From NCBI GenBank assembly GCA_964016885.1, contig OZ024745.1, positions 134,292,001 through 134,356,000 of the forward strand: a stretch of DNA of 64,000 nt, read 5' to 3'. The position numbers and the translations under genes are program-made. How positions within the stretch are numbered: the first letter of the stretch is position 1; every line of letters starts with the position of its first letter. This DNA comes from Eledone cirrhosa (Eukaryota). This document shows, in pieces, positions 16,057-46,090 of this stretch. The notes under the pieces are model-generated. The model was not told where the DNA came from and made no database searches. It saw only the letters and a program-made list of their open reading frames with translations.

Positions 16057-16401
16057 TCTATCATTATATATACATATATATAATGAAATAGGAATAACAC
16101 ATGACTCACGTAATCTCAAAGTTTGTAATAAAGCTGTTTCCTCAATCACGACAGAAGCTAAGCTGCTGACATCTAGTAGCAGAATATAGTAACACTCAAG
16201 GGGAATAACTGTTACACCATTTAACAAGAGCTCAGTTAAGAAAAGATAACTCTCGAAAACAACAATCTTCGTTGATTTACTAACAACTGTTGGAGAAAGA
16301 GTTCTGTTAATATAATTCTTTGCGAGTGTAAGTAATCGGATGTTTTTCAATTAGAAACTGTCTTTCTTGTTATTATTTTTTAGATTTTCCGCAGTCGGAG
16401 G

Positions 16402-18474
16402 ATGGACTACGTTCTTCCTTCAAGTTTTGATGCTATAGTTATTGGAACTGGTCTTTCAGAAAGTATCATTGCTTCTTCTTTGGCACGAATTGGCAAAACT
16501 GTTTTACACATAGATAGGAACGCCTATTACGGTAGCCGATGGGCATCGTTCAGCTTGCGTAACCTCCAAACCTGGGCGTCAACATTGAAAGAAAAGGAAC
16601 AGTTAAAATCACAAAATGCATCTTGTGACGCACCTGATTCTTCCGTTGACATCAACCCTCATCTTAAAGAAGGAGAATCGTTCGTGCTCGTCTCACCTTC
16701 TGATGAAGGCTTTTCTGATATCCAAATGTCCTACCATCACATCTCTACAAACACCATTGACGAATGTGATGAACCAAATGATACTACAGCTACTGTAATC
16801 AAAGCTGAAGAACTGCCGACAGAGCAGAGCCAGCCATCCTGCGACAGTCACGAAAAGCAATCAGGTGAGAAGGATGCGAAGAATATGGAGAATGAAGACA
16901 CCAGAGTAGTAGAAGAAACTGAAGACAAAGAAGAAACTGAGCAAATTAATTCTAATTCCGCTACGGAAGTCACTGCAGACAGTACAGAAGAACTTAAGGA
17001 AGTTGAAGTCTATATCACATCAGAAACGTTAGAAAACGAAGCCAGTAACAAAAATGCTATTGAAAAATGGACTATTAAAAGGTTGGAGGATCAATGGAGA
17101 CGTTTCAATTTTGATATAGCTCCCAAAGTATTATACAGTAATGGTGACATGGTAAATCTCTTGATCCAGTCTGATATTTCCCGCTATTGTGAATTTAAGC
17201 TTGTGTCGCGTATTTTAACTATTTTTCAGAATGAACTAAAAGCAGTTCCTTGTTCTCGAGCCCATGTTTTCAATTCCAAGGAAGTATCAATGCTAGAGAA
17301 AAGAATAATGATGAAGTTTATAAAGGCCTGCTCTGAAAATAGTCCTGATGAAACAATGAAAGAGTTTTATGATCGCCCTTTTTCTGAATATTTAGAAGAA
17401 AAGTTTCCTCCAATTGTAAAGCATTATATTTACCATGGAATTACAATGGCACAAAAATCAACCACAACTAAAGAAGGAATTTCTTTAGCTCAGAAATTTT
17501 TTTCATCAGTTGGACGGTATGGCGACATTCCTTTTATAACCCCTGTTTATGGTGTTGGAGAACTCCCACAGGCCTTTAGCCGTACGTGTGCTGTATGGGG
17601 TGGAATCTATTGTTTAAATTTATCAGCTAAAGCTATAATTATTTGTGAGGGGAAAGCAAAAGCTATTATCACAACTGATGCGAAACGAATTGAATTTGAA
17701 TGGCTTATACTAGAACCTAGCTACATTCCAAATGATATTATCGAGTCCATGGACAACCAAACAATCAACAGAGCTATACTGGTTACTGACCAAACTTTAC
17801 TGCAATCACCTAAAGAAGAACTATCACTTCTAAATATTTACCCAGCAGAGGACAGTTCAAGGCCCATAATCATGCACGAATACCCACCATCTTCTATGGT
17901 TTGCCCTGCTGGTTTATCTCTTGTCCACTTTACTAGGCAAGGCGAAGCTGACCCAAAAACTGAACTTGATTATGCTTGTAAATATTTATTCAATTTTGAA
18001 CCTATTGATGAAGATGAGAAAAATACAGATAGTGTTCCAGATGATTCCCAACAGAGCACTGACATACGACCGAATGTCTTATGGTCACTTTTATTCCAGG
18101 TAAAAAGCAAACGTAATGTGAAACTCCAGCAATCCCTACCCAATAATATTTTAGTGACCTCACAACCAGGATCTGAACTGGATTTGGATTTCTATCCAGG
18201 AGAAGCTAAGCGGATATTTGAGGCAATGTATCCTGAAGAAGAATTTCATCCAAAATGTCCCCATCCAGAAGATATTATTTATTGTGGTTCTGAAGAAGAC
18301 AAAGGCCCTGCTAGTGATAATGATGCTAGTAAAACTGAAAGTGATAGTAATATAACAGAGGAGACCACAGATTCTACCTGCCCCGATACAACAAGCAGTC
18401 CTACATTGCCTACTGAGAATTCAGATATCATTTACACAACTGAAAGTTTAACTAACATGAAATTGGAAAATTAA
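16402..18474 (+). CDS. CHM: Rab escort protein (Rab geranylgeranyltransferase component A, CHM/REP); single coding exon
   Basis: 690-aa ORF with GDI/REP motifs FDAIVIGTGLSESIIA, LHIDRNAYYGSRWASF, RRFNFDIAPK, SRYCEFK, VPCSRAHVF and YGVGELPQAFSRTCAVWGG; the long acidic insert after the N-terminal motif is REP-like rather than GDI-like. Confidence 0.93.
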   Translation: MDYVLPSSFDAIVIGTGLSESIIASSLARIGKTVLHIDRNAYYGSRWASFSLRNLQTWASTLKEKEQLKSQNASCDAPDSSVDINPHLKEGESFVLVSPSDEGFSDIQMSYHHISTNTIDECDEPNDTTATVIKAEELPTEQSQPSCDSHEKQSGEKDAKNMENEDTRVVEETEDKEETEQINSNSATEVTADSTEELKEVEVYITSETLENEASNKNAIEKWTIKRLEDQWRRFNFDIAPKVLYSNGDMVNLLIQSDISRYCEFKLVSRILTIFQNELKAVPCSRAHVFNSKEVSMLEKRIMMKFIKACSENSPDETMKEFYDRPFSEYLEEKFPPIVKHYIYHGITMAQKSTTTKEGISLAQKFFSSVGRYGDIPFITPVYGVGELPQAFSRTCAVWGGIYCLNLSAKAIIICEGKAKAIITTDAKRIEFEWLILEPSYIPNDIIESMDNQTINRAILVTDQTLLQSPKEELSLLNIYPAEDSSRPIIMHEYPPSSMVCPAGLSLVHFTRQGEADPKTELDYACKYLFNFEPIDEDEKNTDSVPDDSQQSTDIRPNVLWSLLFQVKSKRNVKLQQSLPNNILVTSQPGSELDLDFYPGEAKRIFEAMYPEEEFHPKCPHPEDIIYCGSEEDKGPASDNDASKTESDSNITEETTDSTCPDTTSSPTLPTENSDIIYTTESLTNMKLEN

Positions 18475-29835: not shown

Positions 29836-32238
29836 GAGGATGGAAGCCATGGAAGATGTTGGCTAAGGTGGTGGTAGGGAAGATGGCAGCCATGGAAGAT
29901 GTTGGCTAAGGTGGTGGTAGGGAGGATGGCAGCCATGGAAGATGTTGGCTAAGGTGGTGGTAGGGAGGATGGCAGCCATGGAAGATGTTGGCTAAGGTGG
30001 TGGTAGGGAGGATGGAAGCCATGGAAGATGTTGGCTAAGGTGGTGGTAGGGAAGATGGCAGCCATGGAAGATGTTGGCTAAGGTGGTGGTAGGGAGGATG
30101 GAAGCCATGGAAGATGTTGGCTAAGGTGGTGGTAGGGAAGATGGCAGCCATGGAAGATGTTGGCTAAGGTGGTGGTAGGGAGGATGGCAGCCATGGAAGA
30201 TGTTGGCTAAGGTGGTGGTAGGGAGGATGGCAGCCATGGAAGATGTTGGCTAAGGTGGTGGTAGGGAGGATGGAAGCCATGGAAGATGTTGGCTAAGGTG
30301 GTGGTAGGGAAGATGGCAGCCATGGAAGATGTTGGCTAAGGTGGTGGTAGGGAGGATGGAAGCCATGGAAGATGTTGGCTAAGGTGGTGGTAGGGAAGAT
30401 GGCAGCCATGGAAGATGTTGGCTAAGGTGGTGGTAGGGAAGATGGAAGCCATGGAAGATGTTGGCTAAGGTGGTGGTAGGGAAGATGGCAGCCATGGAAG
30501 ATGTTGGCTAAGGTGGTGGTAGGGAGGATGGAAGCCATGGAAGATGTTGGCTAAGGTGGTGGTAGGGAAGATGGCAGCCATGGAAGATGTTGGCTAAGGT
30601 GGTGGTAGGGAGGATGGAAGCCATGGAAGATGTTGGCTAAGGTGGTGGTAGGGAAGATGGCAGCCATGGAAGATGTTGGCTAAGGTGGTGGTAGGGAGGA
30701 TGGCAGCCATGGAAGATGTTGGCTAAGGTGGTGGTAGGGAGGATGGCAGCCATGGAAGATGTTGGCTAAGGTGGTGGTAGGGAGGATGGAAGCCATGGAA
30801 GATGTTGGCTAAGGTGGTGGTAGGGAAGATGGCAGCCATGGAAGATGTTGGCTAAGGTGGTGGTAGGGAGGATGGAAGCCATGGAAGATGTTGGCTAAGG
30901 TGGTGGTAGGGAAGATGGCAGCCATGGAAGATGTTGGCTAAGGTGGTGGTAGGGAAGATGGAAGCCATGGAAGATGTTGGCTAAGGTGGTGGTAGGGAAG
31001 ATGGCAGCCATGGAAGATGTTGGCTAAGGTGGTGGTAGGGAGGATGGCAGCCATGGAAGATGTTGGCTAAGGTGGTGGTAGGGAGGATGGAAGCCATGGA
31101 AGATGTTGGCTAAGGTGGTGGTAGGGAAGATGGCAGCCATGGAAGATGTTGGCTAAGGTGGTGGTAGGGAAGATGGAAGCCATGGAAGATGTTGGCTAAG
31201 GTGGTGGTAGGGAAGATGGAAGCCATGGAAGATGTTGGCTAAGGTGGTGGTAGGGAAGATGGCAGCCATGGAAGATGTTGGCTAAGGTGGTGGTAGGGAA
31301 GATGGCAGCCATGGAAGATGTTGGCTAAGGTGGTGGTAGGGAGGATGGAAGCCATGGAAGATGTTGGCTAAGGTGGTGGTAGGGAAGATGGCAGCCATGG
31401 AAGATGTTGGCTAAGGTGGTGGTAGGGAAGATGGAAGCCATGGAAGATGTTGGCTAAGGTGGTGGTAGGGAAGATGGCAGCCATGGAAGATGTTGGCTAA
31501 GGTGGTGGTAGGGAAGATGGCAGCCATGGAAGATGTTGGCTAAGGTGGTGGTAGGGAGGATGGAAGCCATGGAAGATGTTGGCTAAGGTGGTGGTAGGGA
31601 AGATGGCAGCCATGGAAGATGTTGGCTAAGGTGGTGGTAGGGAAGATGGCAGCCATGGAAGATGTTGGCTAAGGTGGTGGTAGGGAAGATGGAAGCCATG
31701 GAAGATGTTGGCTAAGGTGGTGGTAGGGAAGATGGAAGCCATGGAAGATGTTGGCTAAGGTGGTGGTAGGGAAGATGGCAGCCATGGAAGATGTTGGCTA
31801 AGGTGGTGGTAGGGAAGATGGCAGCCATGGAAGATGTTGGCTAAGGTGGTGGTAGGGAAGATGGCAGCCATGGAAGATGTTGGCTAAGGTGGTGGTAGGG
31901 AAGATGGCAGCCATGGAAGATGTTGGCTAAGGTGGTGGTAGGGAAGATGGAAGCCATGGAAGATGTTGGCTAAGGTGGTGGTAGGGAAGATGGAAGCCAT
32001 GGAAGATGTTGGCTAAGGTGGTGGTAGGGAAGATGGAAGCCATGGAAGATGTTGGCTAAGGTGGTGGTAGGGAGGATGGCAGCCATGGAAGATGTTGGCT
32101 AAGGTGGTGGTAGGGAAGATGGAAGCCATGGAAGATGTTGGCTAAGGTGGTGGTAGGGAAGATGGCAGCCATGGAAGATGTTGGCTAAGGTGGTGGTAGG
32201 GAAGATGGAAGCCATGGAAGATGTTGGCTAAGGTGGTG
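29836..32238. repeat. 43-bp minisatellite, ~56 copies
   Basis: Unit ggaagatgttggctaaggtggtggtaggga(a/g)gatgg(c/a)agccat. Confidence 0.97.
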
Positions 32239-35334: not shown

Positions 35335-35984
35335 CTAATAATAATTATTATTATTATATATATATTTTTCATATCATCATTGCCATCATTGTTTTTACAT
35401 CCGTTTTTTCATGCTTACATGGATTGGACATGTGTGTGTGTATATATACATATATATATGCTAAGTGTGTAGGAAAGGAGTAGGTAGAAATTCCATTCTA
35501 TGCCCTAAATACAAACTATGGGTACATAAAAGATGTAGTGGGATCACAGGCAAGGTATCTAAGAATGTAGATTTTATATGATTTTATATGTGGCTGATGC
35601 TCAGGTGCAGTAAGTAGCAAGTGCCCACTGGATACTAGCTCTTTCAACTGCCCAGAGGGTTCTATAGAAATAGTGGACACTTTCCGTTACCTTGGTGACA
35701 AAATCAGCAGTGAAAGTACCGTTCTAACTCTGGTTACTGATTCCTCGATGTCACGTGATTGATTCTTTTGAATTTGCCACCAACGCAGTAGGCAGTGATT
35801 TTTTCAATGGCTTGGAACTTAGTCCACGCTTTGCTTTTTTCCATCCACTGAATTATTTTTGTATAAGTTCCCTGTGTCCACGTATTGCCTGGAAACTTAG
35901 CTGAGAATAGACTTCCCTGATGACGAAAGGCTTCTCCGTACGTTTCTTCGGAAACTATGTTTAATTAATAAGTGGAGGGGAACG

Positions 35985-36018: not shown

Positions 36019-36390
36019 AATTATTGTGTACAGTGCTCAGGTGCATGTATAATACATAGAATAATATACAAATGTCAGGGAAGTGAATAGTGTATGAGTC
36101 ATGATATACATGTGTGTATGTGTATGGAGGGGGAATATTAGGTGTAGTGTTGGCGAATCTCAGTAAGCATGGAGGTTTTAAAAGATGCAGTGTTTCGACA
36201 GCTAACAACTGATGCAGGGAGTTTGTTCCATGCTTCAGCAACTCTGAGCGTGAAAAAATGTCATGGGAGCTGTGCTGTTTTCTGACTTTGTAGGCATCCT
36301 CATGTGTGTTAGACACATGGAAATCAAAAAGGTACTCAGGGTTGTTGTTCGCAAGATGGTTATTTGAGACCCAAGAGTTTGTAGTCACTT
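35985..36390 (-). mobile_element. CR1/L2-like LINE 3' fragment with (ATT)n tail
   Basis: An alternate frame reads RVAEAWNKLPASVVSCRNTASFK, the typical CR1 ORF2 C-terminal R....WN.LP motif. Confidence 0.72.
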
Positions 36391-36934: not shown

Positions 36935-37004
36935 CTGTCAGACCTTGTAGATACTTCAGGATAATGAACTGAGCCAATTCCTCCAAAATCGTCAGTAATA
37001 TCAT
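36935..37004 (-). CDS. IDUA: IDUA exon 9
   Basis: DITDDFGGIGSVHYPEVSTRSD; polypyrimidine-ccag acceptor and GTAAG donor; phases 1/2 fit both neighbours. Confidence 0.82.
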
Positions 37005-37101
37005 CTGGAAAAAAACTTGTGTATATAATATATATATATAGATATATATGAGAGACGTAAAATAAGAAAATTATAAAAATTAACTTACTTACTAAAATTT
37101 C

Positions 37102-37184
37102 ACTCCAACTAATTAGTTTCTGAAAGGGAATAAACATAGTTTCCGAAGAAACGTACGGAGAAGCCTTTCGTCATCAGGGAAGTC
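37102..37184 (-). ncRNA. Putative type I hammerhead ribozyme, IDUA-sense copy
   Basis: Reverse complement of the 38041-38123 motif. Confidence 0.6.
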
Positions 37185-38040
37185 TATTCTCAGCTAAGTT
37201 TCCAGGCAATACGTGGACACAGGGAACTTATACAAAAATAATTCAGTGGATGGAAAAAAGCAAAGCGTGGACTAAGTTCCAAGCCATTGAAAAAATCACT
37301 GACTACTGCGTCGGTGGCAAATTCAAAAGAATCAATCACGTGACATCGAGGTCAATCAGTGAAGAGTGGTTTGTTAAGAAGATAGCAGCCGGACTGTTAC
37401 TATGAACTATAGTAGCAGTTTTGGCCAATTTTGGCTCAACAAAATAATTTGGAGATAATTATAAAGAATTAGTATATCTACTAACATATATATACAGATG
37501 CATACCTATGCCAGCAAATATGTAGGTTTTGTCTTAGTAACTTTTGTCTTAGAAACTATGTTTATTCCCTTTCAGAAACTAATTAGTTGGAGTGAAATTT
37601 TAGTAAGTAAGTTAATTTTTATAATTTTCTTATTTTACGTCTCTCATATTATTGTTCTGCATCCCCATGCATTGAACCACAAAGTTACTAAGACAAAACC
37701 TATATATTTGCTGGCATAGGTATGCATCTGTATATATATGTTAGTAGATATACTAATTCTTTATAATTATCTCCAAATTATTTTGTTGAGCCAAAATTGG
37801 CCAAAACTGCTACTATAGTTCATAGTAACAGTCCGGCTGCTATCTTCTTAACAAACCACTCTTCACTGATTGACCTCGATGTCACGTGATTGATTCTTTT
37901 GAATTTGCCACCAACGCAGTAGGCAGTGATTTTTTCAATGGCTTGGAACTTAGTCCACGCTTTGCTTTTTTCCATCCACTGAATTATTTTTGTATAAGTT
38001 CCCTGTGTCCACGTATTGCCTGGAAACTTAGCTGAGAATA

Positions 38041-38123
38041 GACTTCCCTGATGACGAAAGGCTTCTCCGTACGTTTCTTCGGAAACTATGTTTATTCCCT
38101 TTCAGAAACTAATTAGTTGGAGT
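38041..38123 (+). ncRNA. Putative type I hammerhead ribozyme
   Basis: gacuucc-CUGAUGA-cgaaagg...ccuuuca-GAAA-cuaauuag-UU-ggagu: catalytic boxes, stem II gaaagg/ccuuuc, palindromic stem III, GUU triplet, short stem I. Confidence 0.62.
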
Positions 38124-38577
38124 GAAATTTTAGTAAGTAAGTTAATTTTTATAATTTTCTTATTTTACGTCTCTCATATTATTGTTCTGCATCCCCATGC
38201 ATTGAACCACAAAGTTACTAAGACAAAACCTATATATTTGCTGGCATAGGTATGCATCTGTATATATATGTTAGTAGATATACTAATTCTTTATATAGAT
38301 ATATATATATATTTTTATTTATATATATATATATTAAAATAACAGATTCAAGTTTAAGCAAAGAATCGCTGCTTTCACCCTTAATGGGATCTTCTGAGTT
38401 TCAGAAGATCCCGTTAAGGGTGAAAGCAGCGATTCTTTGCTTAAACTTTAATCTGTTATTTTAATAAATATTTGCTCTAGGGTTCTTATACATTTGATAT
38501 ATATTTATCCTTATCGAACCCTCTTTGGATTTTAGTCTTCACATTTATCATTATTACTATATATATATATATATATA

Positions 38578-40795: not shown

Positions 40796-41048
40796 TAGAA
40801 ATAGGTTGTTTAGTAATATTGAGATTCAGTGTGATGTTGCCAAGATAAGCCAGCAGCACCATTGCAGAGTATACTGGTTTACGCACAAACTGCACATGAG
40901 GTGGTTTTGTGTTATTCATTTGGAATCTTGCAAACAGAGTACGCTGAGTAAACTGGTGTGGGAAGTAGCTTAAGAAAGCATTATCATTGCTCAATAAGGT
41001 GAAATTGATGGACTTCAGAAGCTTTGATTTTTGGTGAAGAGCAATTAC
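40796..41048 (-). CDS. IDUA: IDUA exon 8
   Basis: VIALHQ...[53 protein letters not shown]...; the GTATGT donor at 40795 gives phase 1 (3' boundary less certain). Confidence 0.88.
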
Positions 41049-41749
41049 CTGACAAAAGAACATAAACGCCATAAATATTCCACGTGAATAGATTAATTAA
41101 TACAACATGAATATTGCCAGACATTAGAATTAAACTAGTCTAGGAATTACATTGTTTCTATAGCATTAAACAAATTAGAGAAGCATTTAATATACATTTA
41201 TACATCTTAAACATGGGTGGAGGTGGTGAGAGCTGACCTCAGATCGCTGAAGCTCACGGAGAAGATGACGAAGGACCATGACAAATGGAGAGATGCTGTG
41301 CTGATTAGGACCCATCCCACCCTTGCAAGCAGGCAAAAACAGACGTAAGATGATGATGATGATGACATCTTTTGTTTTCTTTTTAGAATAACTGAATAAC
41401 TGGATTTATTTTGTAAAAGATAGAGAAAAAGAAAGCAGCATTGTAAAGGACTATAAATGAGAGAAAAAGGAGGGAAGAGCAAGGACTACTAGACAAAGGA
41501 AGTGGTGACAGTGACAGACTCTACACCTAGGTCAGAATGGTGTTTCAGCTGCAACCCGCGGACAAAATGGCAAAGACATTTCTACAGAAAATGGCCAGCA
41601 ACACACGCAGCAGCAGCCACCCCACCTAGTGTTGCTCCTTCTTTAGGTGGGCTGCTATCGATCAGCTTTTTAAAATCTGCTTTGCATACTGGCATAGGTT
41701 GGATCAATTGTCACTGTTATTATTCAGAGTTACTGGACAACCCCACATC

Positions 41750-42489: not shown

Positions 42490-45400
42490 CATGATCATCA
42501 TCATCATCGTGTAACATCCATCTTCCACGCCAGCATGGGTTTGGACGGGAATTTTCCCACTTGAGGCAAGATTTGTTGTCCTGCTCGTATAGGACTGTCT
42601 GGCGGGTTTTCTACGGCTGGATGCCCTTCCTAACACCAACCACGTTAACAGTGTGGACTGGGAGGTTTTTACCGTGTTACCTACACGGCCACATTACAGC
42701 GTGGACTGTGTGTTTTTTTGTCGTGACACCTACACGCCCTCATTTGTTTTGGACTGGATGTTGTGGTACCAACAAAACTTTACATTGGAAGGGGCGGTGT
42801 AGATGTGGTGGGGGTAGTGGGGCCGGGGTGTATTTTGTTAGAGGTGCCTACTGACTGTAGGTTTTGCTTTGTACTTAGGCAAGGCGGGTCTTCTGTATTA
42901 CTGTGTATCGCCAAAGATCTCGGTCCAGTGACATTGTCTTGGAGAGGTGTAAGTGTGTGAGGCCGGAATTTAGCAAGTCGTCCCAGGTTTTTCTGGGTCT
43001 GCCTACTCTGTGGCTACCGTCTATTTTTATTGCCCTGCACTTTTTTATACAGCTGTCGTCTTTCATGCGCATCACGTGACCGTACCAACGTAGTCTTCTC
43101 TCGAGTAAACAGCATCTGATCCCTCTTATTCCTAATTTCTCCCTTAGTTCGTTTATGCTTTGCCGTTCATGTATATTACTATTACACATCCAGCAGAGCA
43201 TGCAAGCTTCGTTCCTCTCCAGTCTGCGTATATCCTCTGCACACAATGCCCAGATCTCACTGCCATGCAACATTGCTGTTCGTATGCAGGCATCATACAA
43301 CCTGCCTTTCATTTTTAGTGAGAACCCTTTAGCGGCCAATAGTGGTATAAGCTCTCTGAATTTTTTCCATCCCGTTCTGACACTAGCTAGTGTACTTTCG
43401 GAGCACCCTCCACCACTGCTGATTTTGTCACCCAGGTAAAGGAAGGTGTCCACTATTTCTATAGAACCATCTGTGCAATGGAATGAGCTAGTATTCTGTG
43501 GGGACTTGCTGCTACTTATTGCACCAGAGCACCGGCCACATATAAAATCTATATTCTTAGTTAGCTTACCTGTGATCCCACTACATCTTTTATGCACCCA
43601 TACTTTGCATTTGGGACATAAAATGGAGTTTCTGCCTACTCCTTTCCTACACACTGAGCATGGCCATTTCCCAGATGGGGCTGGTGCCCTATTTTCCTTC
43701 CTACAAACTAGAACTTTAGCCTTCGACAGGTTAATTTTAAGGCCTTTTGATTCTAGGCCATGCTTCCATATTTGGAATTTCTTCTCTAGTTCGGCCATTG
43801 ATTCAGCTATGAGCGTTAGATCATCTGCGTATAGGAGTTCCCATGGGCAGCCGGTCTTGAACTCCTCTGTTATAACCTGAAGGGCAATAATAAATAGGAG
43901 GGGGCTAAGGACGGAGCCCTGATGAACACCAACCTTTACGCTAAACTCTTCACTATCTTCGTTGTTAATTCTAACCTTGCTGACTGTTTCTTTATACATG
44001 GCTTGTATAGCTCTCACAAGTCATTCATCAACACCTAGTTTTCTAAGAGCCCACCAGATAATGGAGCAGGGGACTCTGTCAAAGGCTTTCTTCAAGTCAA
44101 CAAAAGCTAAGTATAGGGGTTTACTTTTAGCTAGGTACTTCTCCTGTAGTTGTCATACAATGAAAAGAGCGTCTGTGGTACTTTTACCTGACCCAAACCC
44201 GAACTGCATTTCATCTAGATCAATTCACTCTCTGATTAGTTGCGCTATTACTTTTTCTGTGACCTTCATGACCTGGTCGATTAATTTAATGCCTCTATAG
44301 TTACCCCTATCTAGGGCATCTCCTTTACCCTTGTAGCAGTTAATGATGATGCTGCTACGCCAGTCCTTGGGAACGACCCCATTCTGTATGACTTGGTTTA
44401 CTATCCGGGTGACCATAGTGTGTCCCACCGTTCCAGATGCTTTCAGCATTTCAGCAACTATTTCCGAAGGCCCAGCCGCCTTACCCGTCTTCATATCTTT
44501 GATTGCCTTACTTATTATACTACCTTCAACTAGCACTGCTGGTCCCTCTATTGGATCGATGTGGAGGAGACTGTCTTTCTCCCAATTATTCTCCTCATTT
44601 AGTAGCCTTTCGTAGTGACACTTCCAAGCTACCTTCTTATCAGCGTCAGTGATGGCAAGTACACCATCATCATTAAGGACACACTTCTCCCCGACAATAT
44701 CACTGTTTTCCTTGACGCATTGCCTAGCAATCCTGAACACCTCACGTTTTTGGTCCTCGCATTGTAGAACATGCTTGAACTTTCTTTCCTCTGCTTCCCT
44801 TCTTGCGAAGTATACTTGTCTCCTAGCTTCCCTCCTGGCCACTTGATAGTATTCTCTACTTCCCCCATCCTTTCCAAGCCTGCTTTTTGGCCTTAATTGA
44901 CTCCTCCACCTTACTGTTCCACCACCACGTTACTCTCCTCCTGCCTATAGGCCTGCTCCAGCCACAGACATCATCTGCCGCCTTCAGCAGGTTAGCTTTC
45001 AGGAATTCCCACTGTTCCTCTATATTGTACGACTAATTGCTCTTCCTTACTGTCAAAAGCATCAAGTAATATGCTTTTAAATTTATTACTGGCTGTGGGG
45101 TCCTTTAGCTTCCATATTTTTCTCCTGAGGATAGTCTTCCTCTGTTGTCGAGTACGTGTTGTCCTGACTATGCGGTCGCTGACTATGAGTATGTTGGGAG
45201 GTGCATTCTTCGTGGGGGAGGGATTTAGTGTTTACAACAGACACTCTATCACGACTTCTGGTAAGGATATAATCTATCTGACTGGCGTGTTCCCCTGATC
45301 TATAGGTGATCAAGTGATTGTCTCGTTTTTTGAAGTTAGTGTTACAGACAGTTAGGTTATTTGCGTCACAGAATTCCAGGATTCTGGAGCCTTCCTCATT

Positions 45401-46090
45401 TCTAGTACCAAACCCATAGCCTCCATGAATTCCATCATAGCCATCACAATGTTGTCCAACGTGACCATTTAGGTCGCCAGCAATAATTATGTAGTCACTG
45501 TTGGTTATTTGGGAGGTCGTGAGCATCAATATCTCATAGAATCTATCTTTTATAACGCCAGGCAGTCCGGATTGGGGTGCGTACGCAGATATTACTGTCA
45601 CAGTAGTTCTATTTTGGACAAGTCTTATTTTAATTATTCTGTCGTTCACTCTATTTACATCTATTATCTTATCTACCCATTTTTCTGCTAACATGATTCC
45701 TATCCCACCCAGCCCATTGTCATTTCCCACCCAGAAAAGCTTATAGCATCGTTTTTTACCCACAATGAATCTAGCAGACCCACCCCTCCACCTGGTCTCT
45801 TGGATACAGCAAACATCAACCTCCTTGCGTTCAAGCATTTCTACAACCTCGTTAGAGCGACCTTTTAAGGTGCCTACATTCATGGTACCAACTCTGAAGT
45901 TTTGGATTGCGTTTGGTGGGTGAGAACGGTGGGGCACAGGGAGGGGGCCGGGGTTGGGGTTATGTTGGCCATCCGCGGCCGAAACAAAGAGGAGGAGTCC
46001 TTGCCTTTTCGTTCGTCATCTGCACTGTAATTCAGTTGCCTCTGGAACTGATCTTGAGTAATGACTGAAAGATCTTGGGTAAAGTGCAAA
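42490..46090 (-). mobile_element. Near full-length RTE-clade LINE (APE endonuclease, RT, PHD finger), inactivated
   Basis: APE (VCCIQETRW, GDLNGHVG, SQIDYIL) at 45086..45937; RT (NYRGIKL, QFGF, GVHQGSVLSP, YADD) at 42875..44842 with in-frame TGA stops and frameshifts; 3' UTR ending in a (GAT)n tail near 42490-42508. The 5' end is approximate. Confidence 0.92.

Follow-up and report, generated by a model that had tools for sequence, protein, structure and literature searches.

The closest described systems to the locus studied here are the non-LTR retrozymes of metazoans and the minimal hammerhead ribozymes in the pseudo-LTRs of Penelope-like elements (PLEs). Non-LTR retrozymes consist of AT-rich units without coding capacity, repeated in tandem and each bearing a type I hammerhead; they occur in thousands of copies, are flanked by target duplications longer than 4 bp, and are often intronic, as are about 44% of those in X. 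tropicalis (PMC7229834; bioRxiv 10.64898/2026.07.22.740005). The octopod family described here is alike in these respects, and its unit length of 530–571 nt lies above the range of 150–450 nt and inside the wider range of 51–972 nt given for such elements. It differs in that its loci mostly consist of one to three units, are inverted head to head, and belong to an octopod host, and in that its hammerhead has C·A at positions 10.1·11.1, a 36-nt loop 2, and a GUU triplet.

The hammerheads of PLE pseudo-LTRs are likewise of type I, with a long helix II, a helix I of 4–6 bp, and a palindromic helix III, and they form opposite-strand pairs a few hundred bases apart, as at this locus; however, they have one unpaired base before a conserved G10.1-C11.1 pair (PMC4209133), whereas in the octopod hammerhead each side contributes one unpaired base, the two being most plausibly a C·A mismatch, and the helix III palindrome is 10 nt long. 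Neptune-type endonuclease-bearing PLEs and Poseidon of the anole (PMC8557442; PMC11167929) share with the octopod family the 5′ truncation, the inverted arm, the tail at one end, the (TA)n target, and two reverse transcriptase (RT) start sites downstream of the hammerhead, with both strands primed. In contrast to these elements, the octopod unit has no ORF and its tail is 116 nt rather than 30–40 nt; furthermore, its arms are strictly one per site (21/21), whereas the in vitro work on the anole element found the choice of start site to be no different between strands (PMC11167929).

We analysed a 64-kb stretch of the Eledone cirrhosa genome (hereafter, the window), in which an earlier note had pointed to a hammerhead-like motif. 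We give a probability of roughly 0.8 to the following reading: the motif belongs, as its hammerhead, to a retroelement of approximately 530 nt that is non-coding and present in high copy number, likely a non-LTR retrozyme mobilised by a Penelope-like element; a copy was recently inserted into intron 8 of IDUA, where the antisense arm of the insertion is predicted to keep the motif closed, and cleavage of the IDUA RNA by it is not likely.

The motif in IDUA intron 8 and the insertion that carries it

Matches to PF01229 on the minus strand identified the host gene as IDUA, and 15 coding exons were mapped by tblastn with two homologues; one exon was 85% identical to Octopus sinensis IDUA, and the closest proteins were octopod. 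On this strand, coding exon 8 (40796..41051, 5′ edge approximate, from tblastn) and the 70-nt coding exon 9 (36935..37004, from tblastn and a contig match) bound intron 8 (40795–37005), and the acceptor AG of exon 9 is at 37006–37005. The type I hammerhead-like motif occupies 37102..37184 on the minus strand, sense to IDUA, and its predicted cut at 37107/37106 lies 102 nt upstream of the tblastn-mapped exon 9, so that the earlier placement on the pre-mRNA strand approximately 100 nt before this exon was right in both strand and distance.

In hammerhead position numbering, as used throughout, helix I pairs its 5′ strand (37183–37178) with GGAGU at 37106–37102 and contains a bulged U. The CUGAUGA box (37177–37171) is followed by C 37170 and then by a 6-bp helix II, formed by GAAAGG (37169–37164) and CCUUUC (37127–37122) around a loop 2 of 36 nt. 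A 37121 and GAAA (37120–37117) lie 5′ of the palindromic helix III, and the GUU triplet, a weak one, ends at 37107. The CUGANGA and GAAA boxes, the A15.1-U16.1 pair, and an NUH triplet are all present in the letters. The earlier description of both catalytic boxes, a 6-bp stem II, a palindromic stem III, a GUU triplet, and type I topology thus corresponds exactly to the sequence, and what had been noted there as a C-A first pair of stem II is the 10.1·11.1 mismatch between C 37170 and A 37121.

A descriptor search of the 64-kb window, one of the checks that had been proposed, recovered only the motif and its plus-strand twin, and an equally good match was found in 0 of 60 Markov-simulated windows of the same size. 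Because none of the simulated windows matched and helix II covaries among genomic copies (see below), the motif is not a chance occurrence, and we regard it as confirmed. The Rfam covariance models, also proposed as a check, gave no hammerhead match to the motif at either the gathering score or E ≤ 10; standard hammerhead models miss this C·A family. An Rfam match to PhotoRC-I was rejected, being merely a UUCG hairpin within loop 2 that other subfamilies do not have. The minimum free energy structure of the 101-nt local stretch differs from the hammerhead fold (z 0.34). An alternative fold through an inner GAAAC at 37143 was also rejected, since its downstream strand is unable to pair with helix I and it is not kept in other subfamilies.

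Self-comparison placed the motif, together with two further copies, within a 1.25-kb inverted and tandem repeat insertion, which the earlier note had overlooked. A 499-nt minus-strand arm (37046..37544, unit positions 446–530 followed by 1–414), whose 3′ end is the first of two fixed termini and abuts (TA)n, lies head to head with 1.4 plus-strand copies of a 530-nt repeat, the two arms being joined at a short local duplication (37545..37551). The plus-strand arm, antisense to IDUA, begins with a 5′-truncated unit (37552..37765, positions 317–530) containing only the 3′ half of the hammerhead, and continues with a complete 530-nt unit (37766..38295), which ends at the second fixed terminus and precedes the sense arm when the locus is read in the direction of IDUA transcription. 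The second complete hammerhead (38041..38123, plus strand) is identical to the first, and its antisense pairs base for base with 37184–37102. The insertion is flanked by a 15-nt target-site duplication in (TA)n (37035..37049 and 38292..38306), the length of which is 7–15 nt because 4 nt on each side are common with the element ends. With 3 differences over 499 bases and two minority variants in common, the arms identify the insertion as a single recent event.

Further observations concern the surroundings. The GC content is 32–35% in 2-kb bins at 36–40 kb. A 228-nt fragment of the same family (35736..35963, plus strand, antisense to IDUA; unit positions 100–329, with half a hammerhead) lies in intron 9. 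A hairpin just 3′ of the first terminus (38180..38212, plus strand) is a candidate RT recognition site; it resembles one in an unrelated 459-nt tandem retrozyme, located in (TA)n at L152:6010-6919 and having U·U at 10.1·11.1 and a GUA triplet. The palindrome TCACGTGA, which we take to be E-box-like, occurs at 37883–37890 (plus strand) and at the same site in the inverted arm, is kept across subfamilies, and is also found in one PLE 3′ UTR; it is a possible internal promoter.

Conservation of the hammerhead and the C10.1·A11.1 mismatch

Covariation across genomic copies, a further check that had been suggested, was assessed in an alignment of the window copy and 84 of the 99 distinct complete copies, the other 15 having been dropped as near-duplicates or for indels or truncations. 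The second pair of helix II was paired in all 85 sequences in four types (AU 40, UA 26, CG 17, GC 2), and the fifth pair was GC in 43 and UA in 37. The helix II covariation score was 0.23, compared with 0.054 after shuffling, which ignores relatedness, and at most 0.075 in slid controls; two-sided changes were seen in 82 cells versus 34 in shuffled data, and helix II was 88% paired versus 25–55% in the slid controls. A FastTree phylogeny of the 85 arms, built from the sequence outside the ribozyme, without support values and with a few chimeric arms misplaced, contained two lineages, at least five separate two-sided changes in helix II, and one one-sided intermediate. Helix I was a perfect 5 or 6 bp in most subfamilies, with a compensated indel, and the subfamily of the window copy appeared as a bulged intermediate. 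Helix III was 99% paired but nearly invariant and hence uninformative for covariation, and loop 2 was variable, at 34–38 nt in most copies.

The catalytic core behaved differently from the rest of the unit. Outside the ribozyme, 113 of 339 columns differed among seven subfamilies (nine aberrant arms dropped), whereas none of the 21 core positions, six in the first box and 15 from A11.1 to U17, showed a subfamily-wide change; N7 was the only core position that varied by subfamily. When each half of the core was scored on copies picked by the other half, the CUGAUGA box was intact in 75 of 88 complete copies, and among 94 copies selected solely by the 5′ box, 81 had an intact 3′ core. The two-sided changes of helix II between subfamilies, in the presence of a fixed core, indicate that the hammerhead has been under selection in the element.

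Meanwhile, the columns of C 37170 and A 37121 formed a standard pair in none of the 85 sequences, and the G10.1-C11.1 pair of canonical and minimal PLE hammerheads was thus absent from the family, which we filed as a variant. Across the genome, only 66 copies had a base other than A at position 11.1, with C, G, and T all represented in a scattered manner, and one subfamily had A·A. Unrelated hammerhead families in the fetched flanking sequences had G-C, A-U, U·U, A·A, or C·A at 10.1·11.1, and within one of them G-C and U·U occurred in the same register. Because other families vary their bases in this register, C and A are better regarded as a 10.1·11.1 mismatch than as two inserted bases, a reading that this switching disfavours. 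A family-wide C·A mismatch replaces the usual G-C. The family offers a series, made by nature, in which helix II has changed by compensation while the C·A mismatch beside it stayed fixed.

Natural mismatches at the base of helix II are also known from U10.1·U11.1 variants (PMC3088659; HHR_Amex2, PMC7229834), U·U reportedly being the best-tolerated mismatch at this position (PMC3088659); the octopod family differs from these in having C·A, or A·A in one subfamily, with an almost invariant A. The axolotl variant HHR_Amex2 was 22% cleaved in 1 h as a monomer, and better cleaved as a dimer (PMC7229834), but only one of nine Xenopus retrozyme dimers was cleaved in vitro (bioRxiv 10.64898/2026.07.22.740005). 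The calculated folding penalty of the subfamily of the window copy was 3.9 kcal/mol, within a range of 2.0–4.3 kcal/mol and among the higher values of the common subfamilies. This penalty, the bulged helix I, the weak triplet, and the C·A mismatch, which disrupts the most strongly conserved pair of helix II, count against the preferred reading. Helix III had a predicted energy of 0.0 kcal/mol alone and −9 to −10.8 kcal/mol as a duplex; these modelled values fit a hammerhead acting as a dimer (cf. PMC6765202). We consider the motif likely to be self-cutting.

The tandem-unit family and its candidate mobilising element

Exact matching against the genome gave 9,711 occurrences of the 18-nt 3′ core and 7,596 of the 5′ box with its helix II arm, compared with 0 and 2 matches to the reversed patterns; 631 matches to a downstream pattern mostly marked a further subfamily. 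The copy number of the family is about 10^4. Among the first 59 loci, in genome order, of the 3′-core match list (58 after removal of one duplicate), arms on both strands were present in 36, of which 35 were head to head, and 51 of the 58 ended at one of two fixed termini beside (TA)n, located 60 and 176 nt downstream of the cut. In all 21 loci with both outer ends scored, counted by hand, each terminus was used by one arm, and most inverted loci of the other samples showed the same pattern, with three (L006, L019, and L029) ambiguous. Arms ran head to tail through up to about three units, with no ORF between them, and the 530-nt unit contained no long sense ORF and no tRNA. The marks of the family are therefore 5′ truncation, an inverted arm, a tail at one end only, and a (TA)n target. 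The restriction of each arm to one terminus provides a clean genomic rule for Penelope-type priming of both strands.

Most arms read through uncut sites, and 5′ ends at the cut site were found in two unselected loci (L012 and L100) and in L051, which had been picked for this feature. A search for such ends with a noisy pattern gave no pile-up, and genome-wide 12 ends were at the cut versus 5, 1, and 17 at control sites, without a clear accumulation at the cut, a comparison affected by unequal subfamily coverage and microhomology. Circular folds of the unit had z values of −1.5 to −6.1 relative to crude block shuffles. Minor alleles were shared at 72 of 16,552 sites within loci versus 364 of 654,852 between loci, and of 162 private variants covered by at least two units, 148 were confined to a single unit, 7 were present in every unit, and 7 in some of them. 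The sharing of alleles within loci fits a circular template but is suggestive only.

A search for GIY-YIG domains gave 10,596 candidates in the genome, and in the 90 loci examined, no DNA homology between the 530-nt unit and a PLE 3′ UTR was found. These 90 loci included elements encoding RT and GIY-YIG with a Cx4CxxC linker, which is tied to Neptune and to microsatellite targeting (PMC8557442), and such autonomous elements share the layout of the octopod unit, their 3′ UTR bearing a hammerhead and their copies having two termini in (TA)n. One Neptune-like family with long open ORFs (L151:3809-6622, minus strand; L152:1988-4519, plus strand; L160; and L162) had a 3′-UTR hammerhead with a U3-A8 core and (TA)n termini approximately 83 and 150 nt past the cut. 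A second PLE family (L154, L155, L158, L165, and others) had a U·U hammerhead, and in its inverted copy L165, each arm ended at a different terminus. At L028:1502-2570, a retrozyme arm and a 220-nt 3′ end from the U·U PLE family were fused with no (TA)n between them, both ends being first termini; a chimeric insertion and a later deletion explain this junction equally well. The unit copies in L138, L159, and L227 were rejected as partner-linked, as they look like separate insertions, and L061 was rejected as a joined element, as it holds two separate insertions. The flanks of L024–L170 and L203–L242 contained at least about a dozen unrelated type I hammerhead families, with loop 2 ranging from a few to about 80 nt; this genome seems to be very rich in hammerhead families.

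Under the mechanism that we favour, transcripts of tandem units would slowly cut themselves at GUU, probably after dimerising by way of the helix III palindrome, and release unit-length RNA, which may circularise. A Neptune-type RT/GIY-YIG protein would nick both strands of a (TA)n target, and reverse transcription would be primed twice, once for each of the fixed sites 60 and 176 nt downstream of the cut. Such double priming would leave head-to-head arms, so that a host transcript would always meet the antisense arm first and the sense hammerhead would be folded into long double-stranded RNA.

The hammerhead might instead be catalytically dead or negligibly active throughout the family, its structure being kept for protein binding or for dimerising the template in twin priming. 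The near invariance of A11.1, the failure of any subfamily to regain the standard pair, and the uncut sites traversed by most arms are in line with this, as is the finding that hammerhead mutants left the insertion of an anole PLE in vitro unimpaired (PMC11167929); however, conservation falls precisely on the catalytic positions, N7 alone being free, other families in the same genome switch at 10.1·11.1 among G-C, U·U, A·A, and C·A, and cleavage does occur in the axolotl U·U variant (PMC7229834), and we consider a dead hammerhead rather unlikely. It is improbable that the copies merely represent pLTRs, the 3′ ends left by truncation of an autonomous PLE family outside the examined loci, with no self-standing retrozyme: only 90 of the 10,596 GIY-YIG candidates were looked at, which leaves room for such a family, but within an arm up to about three units follow one another head to tail, ORF-free between, and no examined element locus runs on into an RT ORF of its own. 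A retrozyme moved by a Penelope-like element remains the preferred reading, and it supports the proposal in the earlier note that the motif is of the Penelope or retrozyme kind of type I hammerhead with a palindromic helix III.

Our literature search found no paper on octopod retrozymes, and it found no C·A variant, such mismatches possibly being shown in the figures or supplements of PMC4209133; the word "ribozyme" is absent from the main text of a 2026 repeat annotation of Octopus vulgaris (PMC13282606). The element is thus of a kind already known, while its host is new; what sets it apart is the fixed C·A mismatch, the length of loop 2, and the strictness of the terminus rule. A bolder and doubtful proposal, offered tentatively, is that octopods harbour a large, undescribed zoo of active hammerhead retrozymes, with a catalytic variant that would need A11.1 opposite C10.1 and a dimeric Penelope-type protein that would always prime one arm per fixed site; the antisense arm would act as a safety catch in most intronic copies, sparing thousands of them in genes and feeding A-to-I editing with long duplexes.

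The hammerhead in the IDUA transcript

In the IDUA direction, the antisense of the plus-strand arm is transcribed before the sense arm. In the predicted fold of 38330–36990, 497 bases of the sense arm were in one duplex (−945.7 kcal/mol), and all 83 bases of the motif paired with 38041–38123 with a probability of at least 0.997; forcing helix II to form cost 73.9 kcal/mol. This equilibrium folding ignores proteins and ADAR editing, either of which could open the duplex. Intron 8 contained no other sense-strand CUGANGA, and the motif is thus without a cis partner. The hammerhead is therefore predicted to be held shut by its antisense arm in the IDUA pre-mRNA, and, given this duplex and the lack of a second sense copy in the intron, cleavage of intron 8 is unlikely.

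The earlier note had suggested that an active motif would cut intron 8 and could affect the splicing of exon 9. Co-transcriptional cleavage that modulates exon 9 splicing would draw on an intact sense-strand core 102 nt upstream of this exon, and fast intronic ribozymes can lower splicing (PMC10919898), but the motif lies in a 497-bp duplex with an antisense arm made earlier, lacks a cis partner, and belongs to a recent insertion of a family of approximately 10^4 copies. Furthermore, at the mammalian rate of 3.5–4.1 kb/min, the polymerase would clear exon 9 in seconds, and slow intronic ribozymes had no effect on splicing (PMC10919898). A 2,436-nt contig of run X4 covered precisely 36935–37004 with no mismatches, at an offset fitting a spliced IDUA mRNA; this exon-9-only match fits normal splicing and is only consistent with exon 9 inclusion, the run type and sample genotype not being on record. 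We consider the suggested effect very improbable. The insertion could instead affect IDUA through its duplex of approximately 500 bp, whether by A-to-I editing, by retention in the nucleus, or because the branch region is crowded, which is compatible with the preferred explanation. Coleoids are known for heavy RNA editing, the duplex ends at 37046, only 40 nt from the acceptor AG at 37006–37005, and the element brings GTAAGT donors at 37092 and 37088; however, the element leaves the acceptor and the polypyrimidine tract in place, along with 40 nt of host sequence, and the X4 contig agrees with exon 9 inclusion. Such an effect is unlikely, although, if the insertion matters to IDUA at all, a duplex 40 nt from the acceptor is a likelier route than cleavage.

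The preferred reading of a retrozyme copy shut by its own antisense arm thus implies that the motif probably does not regulate IDUA; as a statement on this gene, one recent copy of about ten thousand matters little. The hammerheads of amniote C10orf118 and RECK and the CPEB3 ribozyme are similarly intronic and on the sense strand, but they are single-copy, old, and conserved, whereas the octopod copy is recent, is one of 10^4, and is paired by its own antisense; the single copy, age, and accessibility in the pre-mRNA of a host-domesticated intronic ribozyme are not found here. More generally, the antisense arm suggests a testable reason for the tolerance of intronic retrozymes.

Several features of the window were recorded alongside. 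An AG at 37185–37184 on the minus strand stands directly before helix I and, with the GTAAGT donors (37092–37083), could bound a cryptic exon of 91–95 nt; in Penelope of Drosophila virilis, an intron ends at helix I (PMC4209133). A 145-nt near-perfect palindrome (38327–38471) adjoins the insertion. Intron 7 of IDUA holds a fragmented LINE (42875–46015, minus strand) with an AP endonuclease, an RT, and a PHD finger, and a further repeat of very high copy number, judging from contig depth, lies in intron 9 (36020–36376). Outside these repeats, a 696-codon open frame (16384–18474, plus strand) with GDI and RAE1/2 domains is Rab escort protein-like and apparently intronless. Intron 12 contains 56 copies of a 43-nt unit (29839–32238), which are 97% matched.
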